64,000 nt of DNA from a virus, in IMG/VR virus record IMGVR_UViG_3300042566_000678, positions 84,236 to 148,235 of that record; one strand, given 5' to 3'. The notes beneath the pieces were generated by a model. It saw only the letters and a list, made by a program, of their open reading frames with translations. It did no database searches and was not told the origin of the DNA. Both the position numbers and the translations under genes were made by a program. Of this stretch, positions 55,128 through 64,000 are shown piece by piece (within the stretch, counting starts at the first letter, position 1; each line of letters begins with the position of its first letter).

Positions 55128-55185
55128 CTTATTATTGGTTTAATTTATACAAAGATACGAAATATAAACCAAAAGAACAAATAGT

Positions 55186-56551: not shown

Positions 56552-56579
56552 ACCTATAAATATCAATTTATATTAAATG

Positions 56580-56669
56580 TAGAGGATAGCGGATTCGAAC
56601 CGCTGGTAGGGTATTACCCCCACGACAGTTTAGCAAACTGCTGGTTTAAGCCAACTCACCCAACCCTCT
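56580..56669 (-). tRNA. tRNA-Ser(GCT)
   Basis: Cloverleaf, loop TTGCTAA, long variable arm. Confidence 0.92.
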
Positions 56670-56672
56670 ATT

Positions 56673-56747
56673 TGGTAGCCCCACCAAGACTCGAACTTGG
56701 AAATTCGCTTTAGAAGAGCGACGGTATATCCCTTTACCTATGGGGCC
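56673..56747 (-). tRNA. tRNA-Arg(TCT)
   Basis: Loop CTTCTAA, encoded CCA. Confidence 0.93.
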
Positions 56748-56753
56748 AGATTT

Positions 56754-56842
56754 GAACTAACTCACTGGAAACCTTATAGTTGAATTTAATCAACTTATGG
56801 GTTAAGCACTCCTTTTATGTTAGTTCCTCGTGCTCCAAGTGT
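56754..56842 (-). ncRNA. Candidate three-way-junction pseudoknotted RNA
   Basis: CACTTGGA/TCCAGTG, AGCAC/GTGCT, a long hairpin, and a GAACTAAC/GTTAGTTC pseudoknot. Confidence 0.45.
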
Positions 56843-56843
56843 G

Positions 56844-56929
56844 AGGAGAGTGAGGGATTCGAACCCCCGGCCCTGTTACAGGCTACGGTTTTCAAGACCG
56901 TCGCGATAGACCAACTCTGCCAACTCTCC
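56844..56929 (-). tRNA. tRNA-Ser(TGA)
   Basis: Loop CTTGAAA, long variable arm. Confidence 0.93.
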
Positions 56930-56935
56930 TTTTTA

Positions 56936-57283
56936 CTATATTTGTTCTGATGCTAAAGTATCCGATTCTATTTTGATTGGTGGATATTTCTTACGGATTT
57001 CTAATGAATCTTCCAATGCCCACTTTTGTTTAAGTTTGGCACGTTTCTCCATATTTTTAAGTTGTTCTTTTTTCTTTATAATATCTTTCGATAATTTTTC
57101 TATACGAACATACTTACTTGCATAATCCTCATCGGTTGCATCAACCCATTGAATTTTTCTTTGTAATTCTTTGATTTCAGTTTTTATTGTTTCAACCAAA
57201 GGTGCTTCATCACTAAACTTTGGGTCAATTGAACCACCCAATGTGTTGAATAAAAGCATAATAGACATTCCTAATTCTTTCAT
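56936..57283 (-). CDS. Coiled-coil hypothetical protein inside the tRNA array
   Basis: ORF track. Confidence 0.65.
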   Translation of the reverse strand: MKELGMSIMLLFNTLGGSIDPKFSDEAPLVETIKTEIKELQRKIQWVDATDEDYASKYVRIEKLSKDIIKKKEQLKNMEKRAKLKQKWALEDSLEIRKKYPPIKIESDTLASEQI

Positions 57284-57300
57284 AATATTTTTATTTAATG

Positions 57301-57371
57301 TTACCCGAGCAGGATTCGAACCTACCCTAACTGCACCAAAAACAGTTGTGCTACCGCTACACCATCGAGCA
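57301..57371 (-). tRNA. tRNA-Gln(TTG)
   Basis: Loop TTTTGGT, T1-A72. Confidence 0.9.
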
Positions 57372-57376
57372 ATTCG

Positions 57377-57450
57377 CAGTTCGTACGGGATTCGAACCCG
57401 TGGTCTCTTCCGTGACAGGGAAGCATGTTGGGCCTCTACACCAACGAACT
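57377..57450 (-). tRNA. tRNA-Asp(GTC)
   Basis: Loop CTGTCAC, G73. Confidence 0.93.
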
Positions 57451-57640
57451 AAATTAAAACAAACTTTTTGTGTCCTTTTACACATCATAACCATTTTATT
57501 GGTGGTTACATTTTCACGTTGGGTTAATTACTCCCTGCTTATAGTAACTCTCTCCTGACCTGTATGACTATTCCGGCTTCAACAGGACCATTTTAGATTT
57601 TATATACCATGGGGTTACACCATAGTCTTCGTTTGTTTTG

Positions 57641-57713
57641 AGCTTCCAATCGGAATCGAACCAATAACCTACGCATTACAAGTGCGTTGCTCTACCAATT
57701 GAGCTATGGAAGC
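57641..57713 (-). tRNA. tRNA-Thr(TGT)
   Basis: Loop CTTGTAA. Confidence 0.93.
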
Positions 57714-57718
57714 AAATT

Positions 57719-57901
57719 ATGTATCAGTTCCATACCGGCCTATTAGGAACTATTAGGGTTTCTCGGACGAGGTGCACAACCCAATCGGCTATAATGTGTT
57801 ATCAGTTACTTGGTTTCCACCATAAGGAATTAGTAAATGGGGTTCGAACCCACCTCATTGAATGTATGCCTACATCAACTTTCACTGCACATTTGATACA
57901 T
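57719..57901 (-). ncRNA. Candidate ~183-nt structured RNA containing a T-arm
   Basis: ATGTATCA/TGATACAT closing stem, GTGGG-TTCGAAC-CCCAT, several hairpins. Confidence 0.5.
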
Positions 57902-57903
57902 TG

Positions 57904-57977
57904 TACTCCGTACGGGACTCGAACCCGTAAGCTTCCACGTGAAAGGCGGATGTCCTAACCAATTAGACGAACGGAGC
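57904..57977 (-). tRNA. tRNA-Glu(TTC)
   Basis: Loop CTTTCAC. Confidence 0.93.
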
Positions 57978-57982
57978 ATTTA

Positions 57983-58014
57983 CAAATATAAGTATTTAAT
58001 TTCATAATTCCAAA
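57983..58014 (-). promoter_or_regulatory. Class II promoter with predicted start near the 5' end of tRNA-Glu
   Basis: TTTGG-N19-TATATTTG. Confidence 0.7.
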
Positions 58015-58032
58015 CTTTATCGGAATTATTTT

Positions 58033-58116
58033 TGGTGAGAGTAGAAGGACTCGAACCTCCGAACTCGTAGAGAGCTGATTTACAGTCAGCCGCAATTGCC
58101 ACTATGCGATACTCCC
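58033..58116 (-). tRNA. tRNA-Tyr(GTA)
   Basis: Loop CTGTAAA, long variable arm, CCA. Confidence 0.93.
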
Positions 58117-58121
58117 AATTG

Positions 58122-58193
58122 AGCAGGTAGTCAGATTCGAACTGACGTCTCCGGTTTGGAAGACCAGAGCACTAACCTCTGTGCTATACCTGC
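58122..58193 (-). tRNA. tRNA-Gly(TCC)
   Basis: Loop CTTCCAA, U73. Confidence 0.93.
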
Positions 58194-58196
58194 TTA

Positions 58197-58408
58197 TTTC
58201 CCCACATTGAGATTACTTGTGAGTAGTTATTTCGGTTTTTTCTTCTGTTCCAAAAACCTGCGAGGCATCCCTCATAAAAACAGTCAACACTACTGGGAGG
58301 AGGTGTGTCACTCTCCTTTATTCCCACGAAGTCCCACTCGCGCCGTAGACTTTCTGCGGAATCATTCTTTAAGTCTTGATTCGAAGACTTTGAGTATCTC
58401 TTACTCAT
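58197..58408 (-). ncRNA. manA-like structured RNA
   Basis: ~210 nt, many hairpins; GTTGACTG...GGAACAGAA...AGTAATCTCA segments recalled from the manA motif (not verified with Rfam). Confidence 0.55.
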
Positions 58409-58410
58409 TG

Positions 58411-58484
58411 TGGACCAGGTAGGAATCGAACCTACTACCTTTTGATTATGAGTCAACTGCTCTAACCGAGTGAGCTACAAGTCC
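58411..58484 (-). tRNA. tRNA-CAT (Ile2-like or elongator Met)
   Basis: Loop CTCATAA; GG..TAGCTCA..GGTTAGAGCA body resembles Ile2. Confidence 0.88.
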
Positions 58485-58491
58485 AATAAGG

Positions 58492-58599
58492 TGCCGGTGG
58501 AGAGATTGGTTACTCACACGATGTCCTTTTCGGTTACACCACCATACTAGTATAGGTACGTCTAATGGTTGTACTTCCCATTCGTTCCGCCACACCGGC
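58492..58599 (-). ncRNA. Aberrant Leu-like tRNA-like RNA with a hairpin inserted in the D loop
   Basis: GCCGGTG/CACCGGC-A acceptor, GGCGGAA..AGACGT D arm, degenerate T loop TAACCAAT. Confidence 0.55.
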
Positions 58600-58716
58600 A
58601 TATTTCTTTTGTAATGTCTGTACGGTTTGTGTCTTATCTACTCCTTTATACGAGCTTCAAAAGTTTCCATTTCATACATAGCGTCCGTTCCGTCATTCTT
58701 TCGAATCATTACAAAG

Positions 58717-58790
58717 TGGAGAATGTGGGATTCGAACCCACGACCTCTTGAATGCAAATCAAGCGTTCTAGCCAACTGAACTAAATCCCC
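58717..58790 (-). tRNA. tRNA-Ala(TGC)
   Basis: Loop TTTGCAT, G3-U70. Confidence 0.95.
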
Positions 58791-58793
58791 ATT

Positions 58794-58901
58794 AAAGATA
58801 GCTTATGATGTTCACATTTTCCATCATAAGAAGAAACGACCAGTCAAGTTGTGAATCTTACTTTACGTTGCCTGCAACAGGTGCATCTTACTTCTATCTT
58901 T
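58794..58901 (-). ncRNA. Candidate kissing-loop RNA
   Basis: AAAGATAG/CTATCTTT closing stem; two hairpin loops with complementary TTCACA/TGTGAA. Confidence 0.5.
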
Positions 58902-58902
58902 G

Positions 58903-58985
58903 TACTCGAAGAGGGACTTGAACCCACACGCCCATACGGACAAAACATTTTAAGTGTTTCTTGTCTACCATTCCAACATTCGAGC
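58903..58985 (-). tRNA. tRNA-Leu(TAA)
   Basis: Loop CTTAAAA, long variable arm. Confidence 0.93.
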
Positions 58986-59002
58986 AACTTATTTTAGTAT
59001 TA

Positions 59003-59034
59003 CAAATATAATAAAAATATTTTATATATCCAAA
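59003..59034 (-). promoter_or_regulatory. Class II promoter for the middle tRNA block
   Basis: TTTGG-N19-TATATTTG. Confidence 0.7.
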
Positions 59035-61218
59035 TTATTCTACATATTTTGTCCAACTATCTACATTAAAACATCCTCCACAATCGGATTTTTTTTGTAA
59101 TAATTTTTGAACGCTTTGAACTCTAATTTCCGATAAATTTGGATTGTTATAAGTATATAATCTATCTATAAAAATAGATGGTAATCCTTTAATGTTTAAA
59201 TATCTTAAATTATTATTCCAAACTAAAAACCAACTTAAAAGTGGATTTTTTGTACAATCCAATGATTCAATTTTATTATCATGCACCCAAAGTCCTTTAA
59301 GCATTGGGTTGCCACTCAAATTTAAAGCTGTCAATCTGTTATTTTGCATATACAATTGTTGCAGGTTTGGATTGTGAGTTATATCAATTGATGTTACACC
59401 TCTGGTTGTTCCGTATCCAGTTCTACCTTCTGTATTACCAAAATCCAATTCAGTTAAATTTGGATTTCTAGAAACATCAAATGTTACAATATCATTATCC
59501 CCTGCACCAAAGTATTGTAATTTTGATAATGAACTTACATCAATACTTGTCAATTTATTATCCCAAAGTGAAACCCAAGTCAGATTAGTATTTTTGGATA
59601 AATCAACACTACTAATTTCATTGTGAATAATTCTTAACCTTTGTAGATTAGGGAATGCCTCTATACCTCTGATACTTACAATACCCATAGGATTTAGGAT
59701 TTCTATGGTAGTTGCGTTTGCAATTGGTGCAGTTTTAATCCGCCCATCCAAAACAAAATCATATCCCCTATCTATTAGTGCTTGCTCAAATCTACTATCT
59801 GGCACACTCATATACTCCGGCAATGCCGATAGAGATGGTGGTGGAGTTGTTACAATTGGACCAGGTACAAATGGTGTAGATGGTGATGATGCCGTTGGTG
59901 GGGTAGGTACTATTGGTGCTACATATACCGGTGGTGGTGTATCATCCAATGTTCTGAAATTGCGTTCATCACCATATACTATACCCTTTGAGTTTATACA
60001 ATATGCTCTAATATAGTAGGTTGAATTTGGTATTAATTCATTTACATCTACCATATATCCACCCAAACCTTTCCCATATATAAGTTTTCTATCTGAAATT
60101 GTAGGTGTTTTTTCTCTACTAATAACCACACCCTTTTCAGTTACAGGTGTATTACCTTCATTTGTAACCTCACCACCAATTCTTGCACTCTTAAATGAAA
60201 TATTCCCAATATCGTTGGTAGATATTTTAGCAAATGTATAATCTAATGTTGAAAAATTGATTTCATCACCATATACAATACCCGCTTCATTTTGAGCGTA
60301 TGCTCTTACATAGTATTTAGTATTTACCTCCAATTTAGTAACTACTATTTTATATTCACCCAAGTCTGTGACTGATGATTTGAACTTTAAATCCTCCACC
60401 GATGGTTTTGGTGATTTAGATACAACTACACCACGTTCTTTCAATTCTCCCCTACCCAAATCTTTTACATTACCACTTAATGTTACCACATCTAATCCAA
60501 CATCCGTTGCAGGATTTGTTTGGATTGTAGGTAGTTTATACTCTAATGTTGAAAATGAAAGTTCTTTACCATACGATGTACCCATAGCATTTGTAGCAAA
60601 GGCACGGACATTGTACTTTGTTCCTGCTTTTAGTTTGATTACAACTAAATTGAATACACCCATACCATCACCTGTATTGAATGTACTATCGGTAGTTGTA
60701 GGTGTTTGGTTGGTACTAATGCAAAATCCTCGCTTTAATATAGGTGTTTCACCATCATCTGTAATATTACCATATAGTTTTACCGATGTTAGAGTTATAT
60801 TACCCAAACTATCGGTTGTTAAAGTTGGTAGTATATAATCACCAGTTGTAAAATTCTTTAATTGACCATATGCAATACCATATTTGTTTTTGGCGTATGC
60901 ATTATAGTAATAGGTTTTATTTGGTGTTAGTTTGGTTAGTTGTGATTTAAATATTGTAACATTTGTATCCAATTTAATGGTAGTACCATATCCACCAACA
61001 TCTGGATTAGTTGCGTAAATAAATCCACGTTCAATTGTAGGTGCATAGGGTACATCTTCTACTTTACCTACAATAAATGCTGATTTAAGTGTAACATTGG
61101 TTGCATCCTCTGTTAATACAGATGGTGGTAAATCAATAATCGTTGGTGTTAGTGCTTCTTCCTTTGCACACCCTAATAATAGGAAAATACCTATTAGACT
61201 GATTTGTAACTTTTTCAT
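59035..61218 (-). CDS. Surface lipoprotein: four FN3-like repeats, Pro-rich linker, leucine-rich repeats
   Basis: Lipobox LLGC; four ~88-aa repeats ending Y(Y/N)xxA(Y/F)xxNxxGxxYG; LRRs such as NxLTSIDVS. Confidence 0.88.
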   Translation of the reverse strand: MKKLQISLIGIFLLLGCAKEEALTPTIIDLPPSVLTEDATNVTLKSAFIVGKVEDVPYAPTIERGFIYATNPDVGGYGTTIKLDTNVTIFKSQLTKLTPNKTYYYNAYAKNKYGIAYGQLKNFTTGDYILPTLTTDSLGNITLTSVKLYGNITDDGETPILKRGFCISTNQTPTTTDSTFNTGDGMGVFNLVVIKLKAGTKYNVRAFATNAMGTSYGKELSFSTLEYKLPTIQTNPATDVGLDVVTLSGNVKDLGRGELKERGVVVSKSPKPSVEDLKFKSSVTDLGEYKIVVTKLEVNTKYYVRAYAQNEAGIVYGDEINFSTLDYTFAKISTNDIGNISFKSARIGGEVTNEGNTPVTEKGVVISREKTPTISDRKLIYGKGLGGYMVDVNELIPNSTYYIRAYCINSKGIVYGDERNFRTLDDTPPPVYVAPIVPTPPTASSPSTPFVPGPIVTTPPPSLSALPEYMSVPDSRFEQALIDRGYDFVLDGRIKTAPIANATTIEILNPMGIVSIRGIEAFPNLQRLRIIHNEISSVDLSKNTNLTWVSLWDNKLTSIDVSSLSKLQYFGAGDNDIVTFDVSRNPNLTELDFGNTEGRTGYGTTRGVTSIDITHNPNLQQLYMQNNRLTALNLSGNPMLKGLWVHDNKIESLDCTKNPLLSWFLVWNNNLRYLNIKGLPSIFIDRLYTYNNPNLSEIRVQSVQKLLQKKSDCGGCFNVDSWTKYVE

Positions 61219-61289
61219 ATTTTACTTTTAGATTTTATGAAACAAATATACAACATTTATTTCACAATTCCTAATTTTTTTAATAAAAG

Positions 61290-61359
61290 TTGCGTGTTCG
61301 GGGTTCGAACCCAATTGGCTTTCCTTATGAGAGATAGCTATTTTCCACTAATCCACGCA
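61290..61359 (-). tRNA. Degenerate tRNA-Met(CAT)-like gene with no clear D stem
   Basis: TGCGTG/CACGCA acceptor, loop CTCATAA, T arm TTGGG-TTCGAAC-CCCGA. Confidence 0.55.
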
Positions 61360-61362
61360 ATC

Positions 61363-61437
61363 TGGTGTGATTGAAGGGAATCGAACCCTTATTGAATGCA
61401 CCACAAACATTTGTCCTACCATTAGACGACAATCACC
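61363..61437 (-). tRNA. tRNA-His(GTG)
   Basis: Loop TTGTGGT, G-1 present, A73, CCA. Confidence 0.92.
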
Positions 61438-61438
61438 G

Positions 61439-61509
61439 AGGTGAATATTGGATTTGAACCAATGTAAATGGTTTTGCAGACCACCCCCTCGCCTCTCGGG
61501 CAATTCACC
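61439..61509 (-). tRNA. tRNA-Cys(GCA)
   Basis: Loop CTGCAAA, U73. Confidence 0.92.
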
Positions 61510-61514
61510 TTATG

Positions 61515-61586
61515 TAGTTCCATAGAGACTCGAACTCCAACTTTGACATCCGTAGTGTCAGGTGCTATCCATTACACCATAGAACC
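61515..61586 (-). tRNA. tRNA-Arg(ACG)
   Basis: Loop CTACGGA. Confidence 0.92.
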
Positions 61587-61591
61587 AATTG

Positions 61592-61662
61592 CACACCCAC
61601 TAGGATTCGAACCCAGAACAACGGAGTTGGAGTCCGTTATGATACCATTTCACCATAGATGC
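61592..61662 (-). tRNA. tRNA-Trp(CCA)
   Basis: Loop CTCCAAC, G73. Confidence 0.9.
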
Positions 61663-61813
61663 GTATTTACTTTCCAACTGAAAAAATTACCTCCAAAAAA
61701 TTTTTGGACCTTTACCCAAAAGTTGAAAAAGTGTAGGAATAATACGAACATCCCCCCGTAGTGGATTCAAACCACATTTTTTTCTCGTCTGGAACGGGGG
61801 ATAATTCGTATTG

Positions 61814-61887
61814 TAGGAATAATAGGAATCGAACCTATAACCGCTGACGTATCAGGTCAGTGCTCTAACCAATTGAGCTATATTCCT
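61814..61887 (-). tRNA. tRNA-Ile(GAT)
   Basis: Loop CTGATAC. Confidence 0.93.
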
Positions 61888-61890
61888 ATG

Positions 61891-61963
61891 TAGAGTAGGC
61901 AGGACTCGAACCTGCAACCTCACGCACCCAAAACGTGTAATCTAGCCATTGATATACTACTCT
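61891..61963 (-). tRNA. tRNA-Pro(TGG)
   Basis: Loop TTTGGGT. Confidence 0.88.
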
Positions 61964-61969
61964 ATATTG

Positions 61970-62042
61970 TGAACCCGTTGGGAATCGAACCCAAAACCCC
62001 TACATTAAAAGTGTAGTGCTCTACCAATTGAGCTACGAGTTC
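61970..62042 (-). tRNA. tRNA-Lys(TTT)
   Basis: Loop CTTTTAA. Confidence 0.94.
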
Positions 62043-62045
62043 TTG

Positions 62046-62122
62046 TGGTGGAACCTGTGGAAATCGAATCACACTCCTTTGGTTTTTCAGACCAACGTAC
62101 GCACCAGCTATACCAAAGTTCC
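62046..62122 (-). tRNA. tRNA-Phe(GAA)
   Basis: Loop CTGAAAA, CCA; irregular T stem. Confidence 0.85.
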
Positions 62123-62127
62123 AATTG

Positions 62128-62210
62128 TGGGAGTTGATGGATTCGAACCACCTACCCATGCAGGTTACCAGATTTACAGTCTAGCGCTTAACCAATTCAG
62201 CCTAACTCCC
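62128..62210 (-). tRNA. tRNA-Tyr(GTA), second divergent copy
   Basis: Loop CTGTAAA, long variable arm. Confidence 0.88.
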
Positions 62211-62252
62211 CGTTCAAATCCGATTTTGATATGTAGCATCGGGAACTACCTG

Positions 62253-62325
62253 TACTCTCGATAGGATTCGAACCTATAAAACCCGGTGTCTAAAACCGGT
62301 GACTTTACCTTTTGTCCACAAGAGT
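62253..62325 (-). tRNA. tRNA with TAG (Leu) anticodon but a short variable loop
   Basis: CCGGT-TTTAGAC-ACCGG, 5-nt variable loop, A73. Confidence 0.8.
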
Positions 62326-62337
62326 ATTTGTTGTAGT

Positions 62338-62856
62338 TTATTCATAACCCCTGTAATTTCTTAAATAAACATTTCTTTTATTATATTTTCTTTGAGAGTT
62401 ACCATTGTTTTTACTACCATAATTTTCAGTTTGTGAATGGCAATTTGGACAAAGTAATCTTAAATTATTCAAATTGTTATTATCAGAATTACCATCTATA
62501 TGGTCTAATTGTAATGTTAGTGGTCTACCATTCCATTCAGCTGATATTCCACAATCAAAACATTCATTTTTCACACTATCTTTTAGATACCTTTTAAGTG
62601 CAAAATTATTAGTAGATGTACCATTTAATATTTTTGGTAAACTTATTGTTTTACTTTTATATTCCGCACAGCATTTTGAATTACAATATTGTTTTACATA
62701 GTTATTTAATTCAGCATCACAATTTTTACATTTAGGTTTTGTTCTTCCACTTGTCCTTTTAGGATATACTTTATTGTTATATTTAGCAGCACAGCTATTT
62801 GAACAAAACTTTCTATTTTTTGGTATATCAATACCACATTCATTACATTTATTCAT
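62338..62856 (-). CDS. Free-standing HNH endonuclease with N-terminal Zn fingers
   Basis: Two CxxC...FCS/YCN fingers; LQLDHIDGNSDNN..NLRLLCPNCH. Confidence 0.9.
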   Translation of the reverse strand: MNKCNECGIDIPKNRKFCSNSCAAKYNNKVYPKRTSGRTKPKCKNCDAELNNYVKQYCNSKCCAEYKSKTISLPKILNGTSTNNFALKRYLKDSVKNECFDCGISAEWNGRPLTLQLDHIDGNSDNNNLNNLRLLCPNCHSQTENYGSKNNGNSQRKYNKRNVYLRNYRGYE

Positions 62857-62920
62857 TTTCGAACTATTTAGTGTTATACCTATAAATATACACTTATATA
62901 TTCAAACAACAATTTTATTG

Positions 62921-62994
62921 TGATGGGTACAGGATTTGAACCTGTAAACCTCTTGGATGTAAGCCAAGCGCTCTACCAATTGAGCTAACCCACC
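62921..62994 (-). tRNA. tRNA-Val(TAC)
   Basis: Loop CTTACAT. Confidence 0.93.
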
Positions 62995-63005
62995 ATTTCA
63001 CCATT

Positions 63006-63018
63006 ATGTCAAAGAACT
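63006..63018 (-). promoter_or_regulatory. boxA-like antitermination sequence
   Basis: AGTTCTTTGACAT between tRNA-Asn and tRNA-Val. Confidence 0.55.
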
Positions 63019-63026
63019 TATTCTTG

Positions 63027-63098
63027 CGTTGGTAATAGGACTCGAACCTATAATCTTCCGGTTAACAGCCGGGCGCTTCACCATTAAGCTATACCAAC
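63027..63098 (-). tRNA. tRNA-Asn(GTT)
   Basis: Loop CTGTTAA, G73; starts directly after the terminator U tract. Confidence 0.92.
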
Positions 63099-63133
63099 AA
63101 AAAAACCCCTAACTTTTTTACAAGTCAGGGGTT
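63099..63133 (-). terminator. Intrinsic terminator of the putative attenuator
   Basis: AACCCCTGACTT-GTAAAA-AAGTTAGGGG followed by TTTTTTT. Confidence 0.85.
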
Positions 63134-63160
63134 GTTTTAATTTAAGTATGTAGTTTGGTT

Positions 63161-63304
63161 TTATCCCAAGTCTACATCATTTAATATTGTTACCCCTAAC
63201 TGTGTTTTAATTCCTTTCGAACTAAAATCACACACGCGATTGCCTACCCATGCCAAAGTTGACATCGGTTGATAAGTAATCGTATGTAGGTTAAGAGTTT
63301 TCAT
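63161..63304 (-). CDS. 47-aa putative leader peptide (not in ORF track)
   Basis: MKTLNLHTITYQPMSTLAWVGNRVCDFSSKGIKTQLGVTILNDVDLG*; A-rich initiation context; contains the antiterminator arm at 63201-63192. Confidence 0.7.
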   Translation of the reverse strand: MKTLNLHTITYQPMSTLAWVGNRVCDFSSKGIKTQLGVTILNDVDLG

Positions 63305-63361
63305 TTCTTTATTTATAATAATATATATGTAATTTTTTTATTTTTAATTAAATTATTTTAG

Positions 63362-63518: not shown

Positions 63519-64000
63519 ACGGATGAGAATACTCACGTAAAAGAACCAGCTTTCGTTGGATTATTGTTTCCCAACTTTTCCACTACCTTTTGGGTAGTAC
63601 CGATTCAATGCGGGTTGGTTAAGCCAACCACTCATAAAGTTACAAACTACTCTCTCTTTACTCCGCTTCTTCTACTCTGCCGAACAGATTCACACTTGCG
63701 GTGTTAGAAGTTTTTCGAAAGAATCACAGACCTCTTGCGGAGGTATCGTGGCAAGGAACAACTCCCTACTATGTACGCACCTTTCGTTTGCAACTGACGA
63801 ACACTTTTGCTCTTTTTGTTTATAGTTTGCACTAACAGGCAAATTGAGTTTGGTTCGTAGATGGTTTCAAGTAGTGGTTCGCCAACCTGCTTCGTTACCT
63901 TTTGAGCAACAAAATACTGAACTACTCGATGTGTTATCCCTAACACCATACTTTAAGTTTGCTTCATAACTCCTACCTTGGTAGGTGAAGAGTAAGGATA
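63519..64000 (-). ncRNA. 3' part of a large structured RNA, probably GOLLD-like; 5' end lies outside the window
   Basis: >480 nt with no credible ORF, GC-richer than flanks, dense hairpins (CCTCCGCAAGAGG, ACACCGCAAGTGT, CTACCCAAAAGGTAG), adjacent to tRNAs. Confidence 0.6.

Follow-up and report, generated by a model that had tools for sequence, protein, structure and literature searches.

A putative all-amino-acid leader attenuator ahead of a phage tRNA array

The purpose of tRNA genes in phages is a question argued over for decades, with codon compensation set against the replacement of tRNAs that are destroyed in the course of infection. The locus described here raises this question in a specific form: a short open reading frame (ORF) containing nearly all amino acids stands, with a terminator-like hairpin, immediately in front of a long phage tRNA array, and we sought to understand what this arrangement might do. 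A first-pass annotation of the DNA had proposed a leader-peptide attenuator that responds to stalling at almost any codon and controls the array. Comparative sequence analysis and RNA folding give us very strong grounds for regarding the element as a real, conserved, ribosome-mediated attenuator, and good grounds for regarding it as codon-specific and as gating the phage tRNA operon; translation, termination, their coupling and the trigger are inferences, there being no expression data.

The window, by which we mean the whole 64,000-nucleotide stretch analyzed, lies at the end of a linear virus contig of 148 kb (~80% complete). The phage is T4-like, comes from freshwater and has a DNA polymerase of family B; judged by this polymerase, its nearest relative in culture is Microcystis phage Mel-JY01 (49.5% identity), which has no tRNA array in the 42 kb examined. 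No Sigma70_r2 gene was found in the 80%-complete genome. The phage genes have A-rich starts without Shine-Dalgarno motifs and the genome contains TTTG...TATATTTG promoters; judged by the promoter and start-site rules of Bacteroidota, these features point to a host from that group. The minus strand carries, in order, the 3' domain of a GOLLD RNA, two tRNA-like genes, the leader ORF, the tRNA genes, a 2H phosphoesterase, an RNase H-like gene and, at 55174, the first strong terminator after the array. The 24 tRNA genes behind the leader together cover all 20 amino acids. The principal features, all on the minus strand, are:

63520..63929 (-): 3' domain of a GOLLD RNA, preceding the leader (Rfam RF02032, scoring 295 bits where the gathering cut-off is 150; the contig ends at 64000)
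63509-63434 and 63432-63361 (-): pair of unusual tRNA-like genes separating GOLLD from the leader
63318..63327 (-): promoter-like motif lying ~15-25 nt ahead of the start of the leader; it matches imperfectly the upstream motif that is most frequent in the genome (TATATTTATA class)
63161..63304 (-): leader ORF, 47 codons plus TAA, without a Pfam match; codons 1-33 form the predicted sensing window
61288..63098 (-): tRNA block 1, wholly behind the terminator (Asn, Val, an HNH gene, Leu-TAG, Tyr, Phe, Lys, Pro, Ile, Trp, Arg-ACG, Cys, His and a tRNA-like gene with a CAT anticodon)
63006..63017 (-): boxA-like element just after tRNA-Asn, at the same position in 11 of 14 orthologous loci
56579..59036 (-): tRNA blocks 2 and 3 (Leu-TAA, Ala, CAT, Gly, Tyr; Glu, Thr, Asp, Gln, Ser, Arg-TCT, Ser)
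56252-55186 (-): 2H phosphoesterase and RNase H-like gene at the end of the tRNA array, before the terminator at 55174

The composition of the leader is as the first-pass annotation had stated: 19 amino acids (all except Glu) are encoded within codons 1-27, the first 29 codons include 26 different ones, and both statements hold base by base. Codons 1-33 likewise specify 19 amino acids and 21 of the 23 decoding classes, lacking only Glu and Arg-AGR; the leader has a single Ala codon. Such coverage is rare, with 19 amino acids in 27 codons occurring in only 17 of 37,391 windows of the phage's own genes (0.05%) and in 0.03-0.12% of random open frames. Codon distinctness at the leader's level is found in 0.18% of gene windows, but random frames reach it in 1-10% of cases, and we therefore discarded it as independent evidence. 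The G/C-ending codons that had been flagged as unexpected are indeed present, but RNA structure partly accounts for them. The motif at 63318..63327 is inferred from its sequence to be a promoter: its class is ~11-fold enriched upstream of ORFs and stands before many genes, and variants of it are kept before orthologous leaders.

The RNA arms around the ORF define four competing segments and two accessory hairpins, again all on the minus strand:

63290..63298 (-): segment 1, the anti-antiterminator, comprising codons 3-5 within a conserved stretch of codons 2-5; its pairing with segment 2 is 9 bp long, and segment 4 is a further possible partner
63202..63231 (-): hairpin directly before segment 2 (-10.5 kcal/mol here; -5 to -10, with altered sequences, in 13 of 14 orthologs), a candidate RNA polymerase pause hairpin by inference
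63192..63201 (-): segment 2, the antiterminator arm, identical in sequence to the 3' arm of the terminator
63148..63177 (-): inner hairpin, which contains the stop codon of the leader in the loop and brings segments 2 and 3 together; kept in most orthologs with different sequences
63122..63133 (-): segment 3, the shared strand, which pairs with segment 2 or segment 4
63099..63115 (-): segment 4 and U7 of an intrinsic terminator with a 12-bp stem, adjoining tRNA-Asn; its activity is inferred

At the core of this layout is a 10-mer at 63201-63192 that was claimed to be duplicated at 63114-63105, with both copies able to pair with 63132-63123, and that was confirmed. It occurs three times in 296 kb (both strands), two of these at the leader, and the genome has nine hairpin-plus-U sites, of which the leader site alone is preceded by a strong competing arm. 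The U7 tract also lies where it had been placed, at 63105-63099, with tRNA-Asn beginning at 63098. The antiterminator had been drawn as one long hairpin closed around the leader stop codon; the stop does lie in a loop, that of the inner hairpin, but the structure is not continuous and consists of a 10-bp helix and this inner hairpin separated by a 14x15-nt internal loop. The likeness to trp/his-type attenuators was borne out and extended by segment 1, the fourth segment in codons 2-5, which had been missed. Across all 14 orthologs the 1:2 duplex has an energy of -6 to -13 kcal/mol, the 2:3 duplex -10 to -19 and the 3:4 duplex -16 to -23, and the order 1:2 < 2:3 <= 3:4 holds throughout, as in a trp-like four-segment layout.

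We then folded the nascent transcript with the RNA behind the leading edge of a ribosome masked. The fold switches at about codon 33: in this purely computational treatment the probability of 2:3 pairing before segment 4 exists is ~1 for A-site codons up to 33 and ~0 beyond. An equilibrium model of the switch was rejected, since the terminator wins once segment 4 exists; the switch must therefore be kinetic, and its kinetics were not simulated. The 2:3 duplex is inferred to form first and to leave almost no toehold for the terminator. In naked full-length folds pairing by segment 1 is dominant, and folding models, which disagree between orthologs, allow that without any ribosome 1:2 may pre-empt 2:3 and give termination. 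Because codons 2-5 pair with the antiterminator arm, a start-codon knockout could thus lower read-through and not, as had been anticipated, raise it. Evidence from covariation is modest among these close relatives because the arms are nearly invariant. For the terminator, 98% of cells are paired across 16 orthologs and one pair has changed on both sides (1/500 shuffles), beside several one-sided changes in the stem; for 2:3 there are few changes, and covariation there is thin.

The strong conservation of segment 1 at the DNA level would also be expected if a phage protein or small RNA bound segment 1 or 2 and threw the switch as a matter of developmental timing, and phage antiterminators are common. 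No candidate factor has been identified, however, and such a mechanism does not predict the codon composition of the leader; we regard it as extremely improbable.

Peptide-based searches recovered 27 loci that reduce to 14 distinct leaders including the window's own, with no ortholog of the leader peptide in 185,579 prokaryote genomes or among cultured phages. A DNA pattern built from the N-terminal motif was discarded as an ortholog search, as its matches were mostly noise. In all 14 leaders the ORF, the G-rich arm, the terminator and a tRNA-Asn gene directly behind it are kept. The leaders are 40-53 codons long, apart from one of 31 with its stop just before the arm, and those ending at the homologous stop differ in length by whole codons. 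In 13 of the 14, 19-20 amino acids appear within the first 31-42 codons, with 21-23 of 23 decoding classes; L288, with 18 amino acids only, is the exception. The 13 further leaders thus meet the expectation of an ORF that stays diverse and conserved despite weak peptide conservation. This coverage is maintained while individual codons move: the single Arg, Cys, Met, Glu, Asp and Tyr codons shift position between orthologs, the Arg singleton occurring at codon 12, 17, 23, 29, 31 or 39, that for Cys at 10, 17, 25 or 34 and that for Glu at 16, 20, 33, 34 or 42. By comparison, all 20 amino acids occur in 0.07% of 33-codon windows of phage genes, and 10 random substitutions (the typical ortholog distance) preserved all 20 in 1% of simulations. 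This relocation of singleton codons points to selection on composition and not on peptide sequence. The Glu codon at position 33 has been lost in the window's leader and its sister L290. Nearly all relatives examined have a separate promoter with tRNA-Glu as the first gene after it, and we infer that this promoter may relax the need for the codon. Most orthologs use AGA for Arg, yet the Arg tRNA of block 1 reads CGN.

These comparisons bear on whether the ORF encodes a functional small protein, with the RNA arms a separate matter. Relatives do retain ~50% identity, pN/pS is below 1 (0.62-0.72), and gene callers list the ORF as a hypothetical protein. Yet the most conserved codons fall on the RNA helices, the C-termini vary freely, other phages have unrelated peptides at the same position, and the peptide has no family match; we find the idea very hard to credit. 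They bear equally on a constitutive or timing element, in which the terminator would serve to end transcription of GOLLD and the competing arm would let a constant fraction through into the tRNA array without any translational control. As no terminator was found between GOLLD and the leader, the two may share one transcript; GOLLD and the two tRNA-like genes lie upstream on the same strand, and 2:3 can form in naked RNA ahead of segment 4. This scheme offers no reason, though, for a conserved open frame or whole-codon length changes, for amino-acid coverage that ends where a ribosome would cover the arm, or for the match between leader and array described below, and we consider it highly unlikely.

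The preferred reading, a codon-specific attenuator, predicts that leaders should be related to the genes behind them. Searches with DNA patterns that made no use of ORFs retrieved the same arrangement from unrelated phages. In a non-circular set of viral terminators, chosen solely for their position before a tRNA and with the competing arm scored by duplex energy against shuffles, arrays of at least three tRNAs had a significant upstream competing arm in 23 of 42 cases and a short ORF in 32 of 42, as against 2 of 18 and 3 of 18 for one or two tRNAs. We then compared leaders and arrays in 50 non-redundant cassettes (48 phage, 2 bacterial; <50% peptide identity), among which relatedness is not fully controlled and many arrays are truncated. 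The fraction of leader codons naming an amino acid of their own array was 0.66 against 0.47 when permuted, and 96% of array amino acids were present in their own leader against 71% (each 0/20,000 permutations). The effect is larger for arrays with 12 or fewer amino acids (0.57 against 0.32), and the more diverse the array, the more diverse its leader (rho 0.82, n=20). In L470, a leader that encodes Gln seven times in succession stands ahead of three tRNA-Gln genes. Given that leader codons match their own array, the window's leader can be understood as the all-amino-acid end of this family.

The same attenuator could instead be a generic gauge of ribosome speed or availability, with codon identity incidental as in antibiotic-response ABC-F leaders. 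It is true that stalling anywhere in codons 1-33 gives the same fold, that whiB7-type leaders answer many translation stresses and that isoacceptors agree imperfectly, the only box present being matched by 26 of 34 Leu/Ser/Arg codons; but a generic gauge leaves both the relocation of singleton codons and the match to partial arrays unexplained, making it unlikely in our judgement.

Under codon-specific attenuation, host RNA polymerase would make the leader RNA with a ribosome trailing it. With fast decoding the ribosome would move past codon 33 and cover segment 2, allowing 3:4 to pair and transcription to stop one base before tRNA-Asn. A delay at any of codons 1-33, whether from a shortage of any aminoacyl-tRNA (through cleavage, host tRNA decay or starvation) or from slow translation overall, would let 2:3 pair before segment 4 is made, giving read-through into the tRNAs. 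The boxA-like site, whose 9-mer occurs three times in the genome and which is inferred to recruit Nus factors, would then probably shield the untranslated RNA from Rho. As the leader names the amino acids served by its array, all 20 in this case, the tRNAs made would relieve the signal, constituting negative feedback. One codon per amino acid should be a weaker signal than the classical runs, and this calls for caution.

How far would such a switch reach? We found no Bacteroidota-type promoter (-7 box) between the leader and tRNA-Asn, and as the U-tract ends one base before tRNA-Asn there is no room for one; the first tRNAs therefore need read-through. Internal promoters occur at 61250, 59010 and 57990, and the inserted lipoprotein gene has a -7 box ahead of it. 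Blocks 2 and 3 each stand behind their own Bacteroidota-type promoter (-7 boxes at 59010 and 57990), 13-15 nt before tRNA-Leu(TAA) and tRNA-Glu and conserved in relatives, and half of the tRNAs have their own promoters. Because these drive the later blocks, strict dependence on read-through is limited to block 1 (Asn to His). The claim that stalling at almost any codon releases the array is hence supported by folding for codons 1-33, but strictly for this block alone. No strong terminator was found between 63099 and 55174, and read-through could therefore add to the later blocks, which fits a leader covering their amino acids too.

Leader-peptide attenuators of enterobacterial amino-acid operons include trpL, hisL, thrL, ilvL and pheM, of which ilv and thr are multivalent. 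As a class such attenuators combine a short leader ORF, an intrinsic terminator, an antiterminator that depends on ribosome position and sensing codons related to the genes, and the locus has each of these, the dependence on ribosome position by folding alone; translation of the leader and a response of read-through to stalling, which also define the class, are inferred. It resembles the trpL type in its 1:2/2:3/3:4 layout, intrinsic terminator, ORF overlapping the competing arm and negative feedback. The trpL-type leaders, however, use runs of one to three amino acids and have biosynthetic or synthetase targets, whereas here segment 2 is inside the ORF, the stop falls between segments 2 and 3, 19 amino acids appear mostly once or twice and the downstream genes are tRNAs, which places it outside the trp/his/thr/ilv families. 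Rfam gave no match at 63099-63304 up to E = 1, leader families and T-box included. A T-box riboswitch needs a stem I specifier loop and a T-box bulge and has no translated leader; the antiterminator of the present element is a plain duplex.

The nearest precedent for its composition is the whiB7/wblC uORF of actinobacteria, which has 19 of 20 amino acids in M. smegmatis, and in which stalling lets an antiterminator form and a single codon, Trp included, is enough for sensing (PMC10274678). Both are long uORFs in which composition decides, for our leader by inference, what is sensed. The whiB7 uORF serves a chromosomal transcription factor, is Ala-enriched and does not mirror its downstream genes, whereas the leader described here, with its one Ala codon, lies upstream of phage tRNAs, gates them by inference, and has a near-uniform composition that corresponds to the array; it lies outside the whiB7/wblC family. 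The annotation's statement that no equivalent is known must be qualified in view of this near-all-amino-acid leader, but stands for tRNA arrays, for which we found no attenuation described in literature that leaves out most subscription journals. The long tRNA array of the Anabaena trn operon (L-array) is induced by translational stress (PMC8421152) and has a repressor, TrcR (PMC10272220). It shares with our locus a long array with an HNH/homing endonuclease gene and switching under translational stress, but it relies on promoter repression, and the text of PMC8421152 mentions neither attenuation nor a leader. Phage tRNAs have been presented as counter-defence, replacing tRNAs destroyed by the host (PMC10264068, PMC11555353, PMC11464382). 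The portions of these papers available to us concern the roles of phage tRNAs and not a transcription sensor; they supply a likely purpose, and it is by analogy with them that we infer anticodon nuclease, host tRNA decay or starvation as the trigger. Attenuation itself being known, what is new is the target, namely tRNA genes in phages, and the codon match between leader and array.

More broadly, we lean slightly towards a widespread phage system in which each array's leader lists its amino acids and senses specific tRNA loss, including that caused by tRNA-cleaving defences, so that replacements are made on demand; the window would be its all-amino-acid form, and read-through could reach an Acb1-like anti-defence gene, the 2H phosphoesterase, whose match to Acb1 (anti-CBASS) is weak and below cut-off. 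If the array is indeed switched on by slow decoding, phage tRNAs answer a shortage, and leader codons would predict which tRNAs each phage expects to lose. Ribosome-mediated attenuation would then apply not only to protein genes but also to tRNA genes, where it would form a direct feedback loop; an all-amino-acid switch of 200 nt could be a general reporter for tRNA-targeting defence systems.

Several further observations concern the array and its relatives. Its insertions are an HNH endonuclease (62856-62338, minus strand) and an Fn3/LRR lipoprotein-like gene of 727 aa (61218-59035, minus strand), both preceded by a promoter-like motif of their own; L002, L003 and L006 lack the HNH gene at the same site, and L006 lacks the long insertion. 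The CAT-anticodon tRNA-like gene after tRNA-His (61360-61288, minus strand) was missed by ARAGORN and Rfam, and the called tRNA-Met at 58484-58410 resembles what we take to be an Ile2-type tRNA. Of the two atypical tRNA-like genes, that at 63509-63434 has a 6-bp anticodon stem and a 4-nt loop and was also missed by both programs, and that at 63432-63361 is Gly(TCC)-like with G replacing U at position 33; these genes are present in several relatives and missing from L003. GOLLD is likewise upstream of the leader in L283 and L287, the latter with a tmRNA gene (1-322) upstream of both, and relatives have a full GOLLD RNA behind stacked Bacteroidota-type promoters and a second boxA-like site. Five large phages (L024, L150, L418, L470 and L533) have serial attenuators, each leader matching the sub-array behind it. 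Among cellular Bacteroidota, a Flavihumibacter bin (L349, 4130-3000, minus strand) and an Ohtaekwangia bin (L376) have cassettes in which two or three tRNA genes stand behind a leader ORF, an antiterminator and a terminator; the former runs on into an ORF that by eye resembles the window's RNase H-like family.
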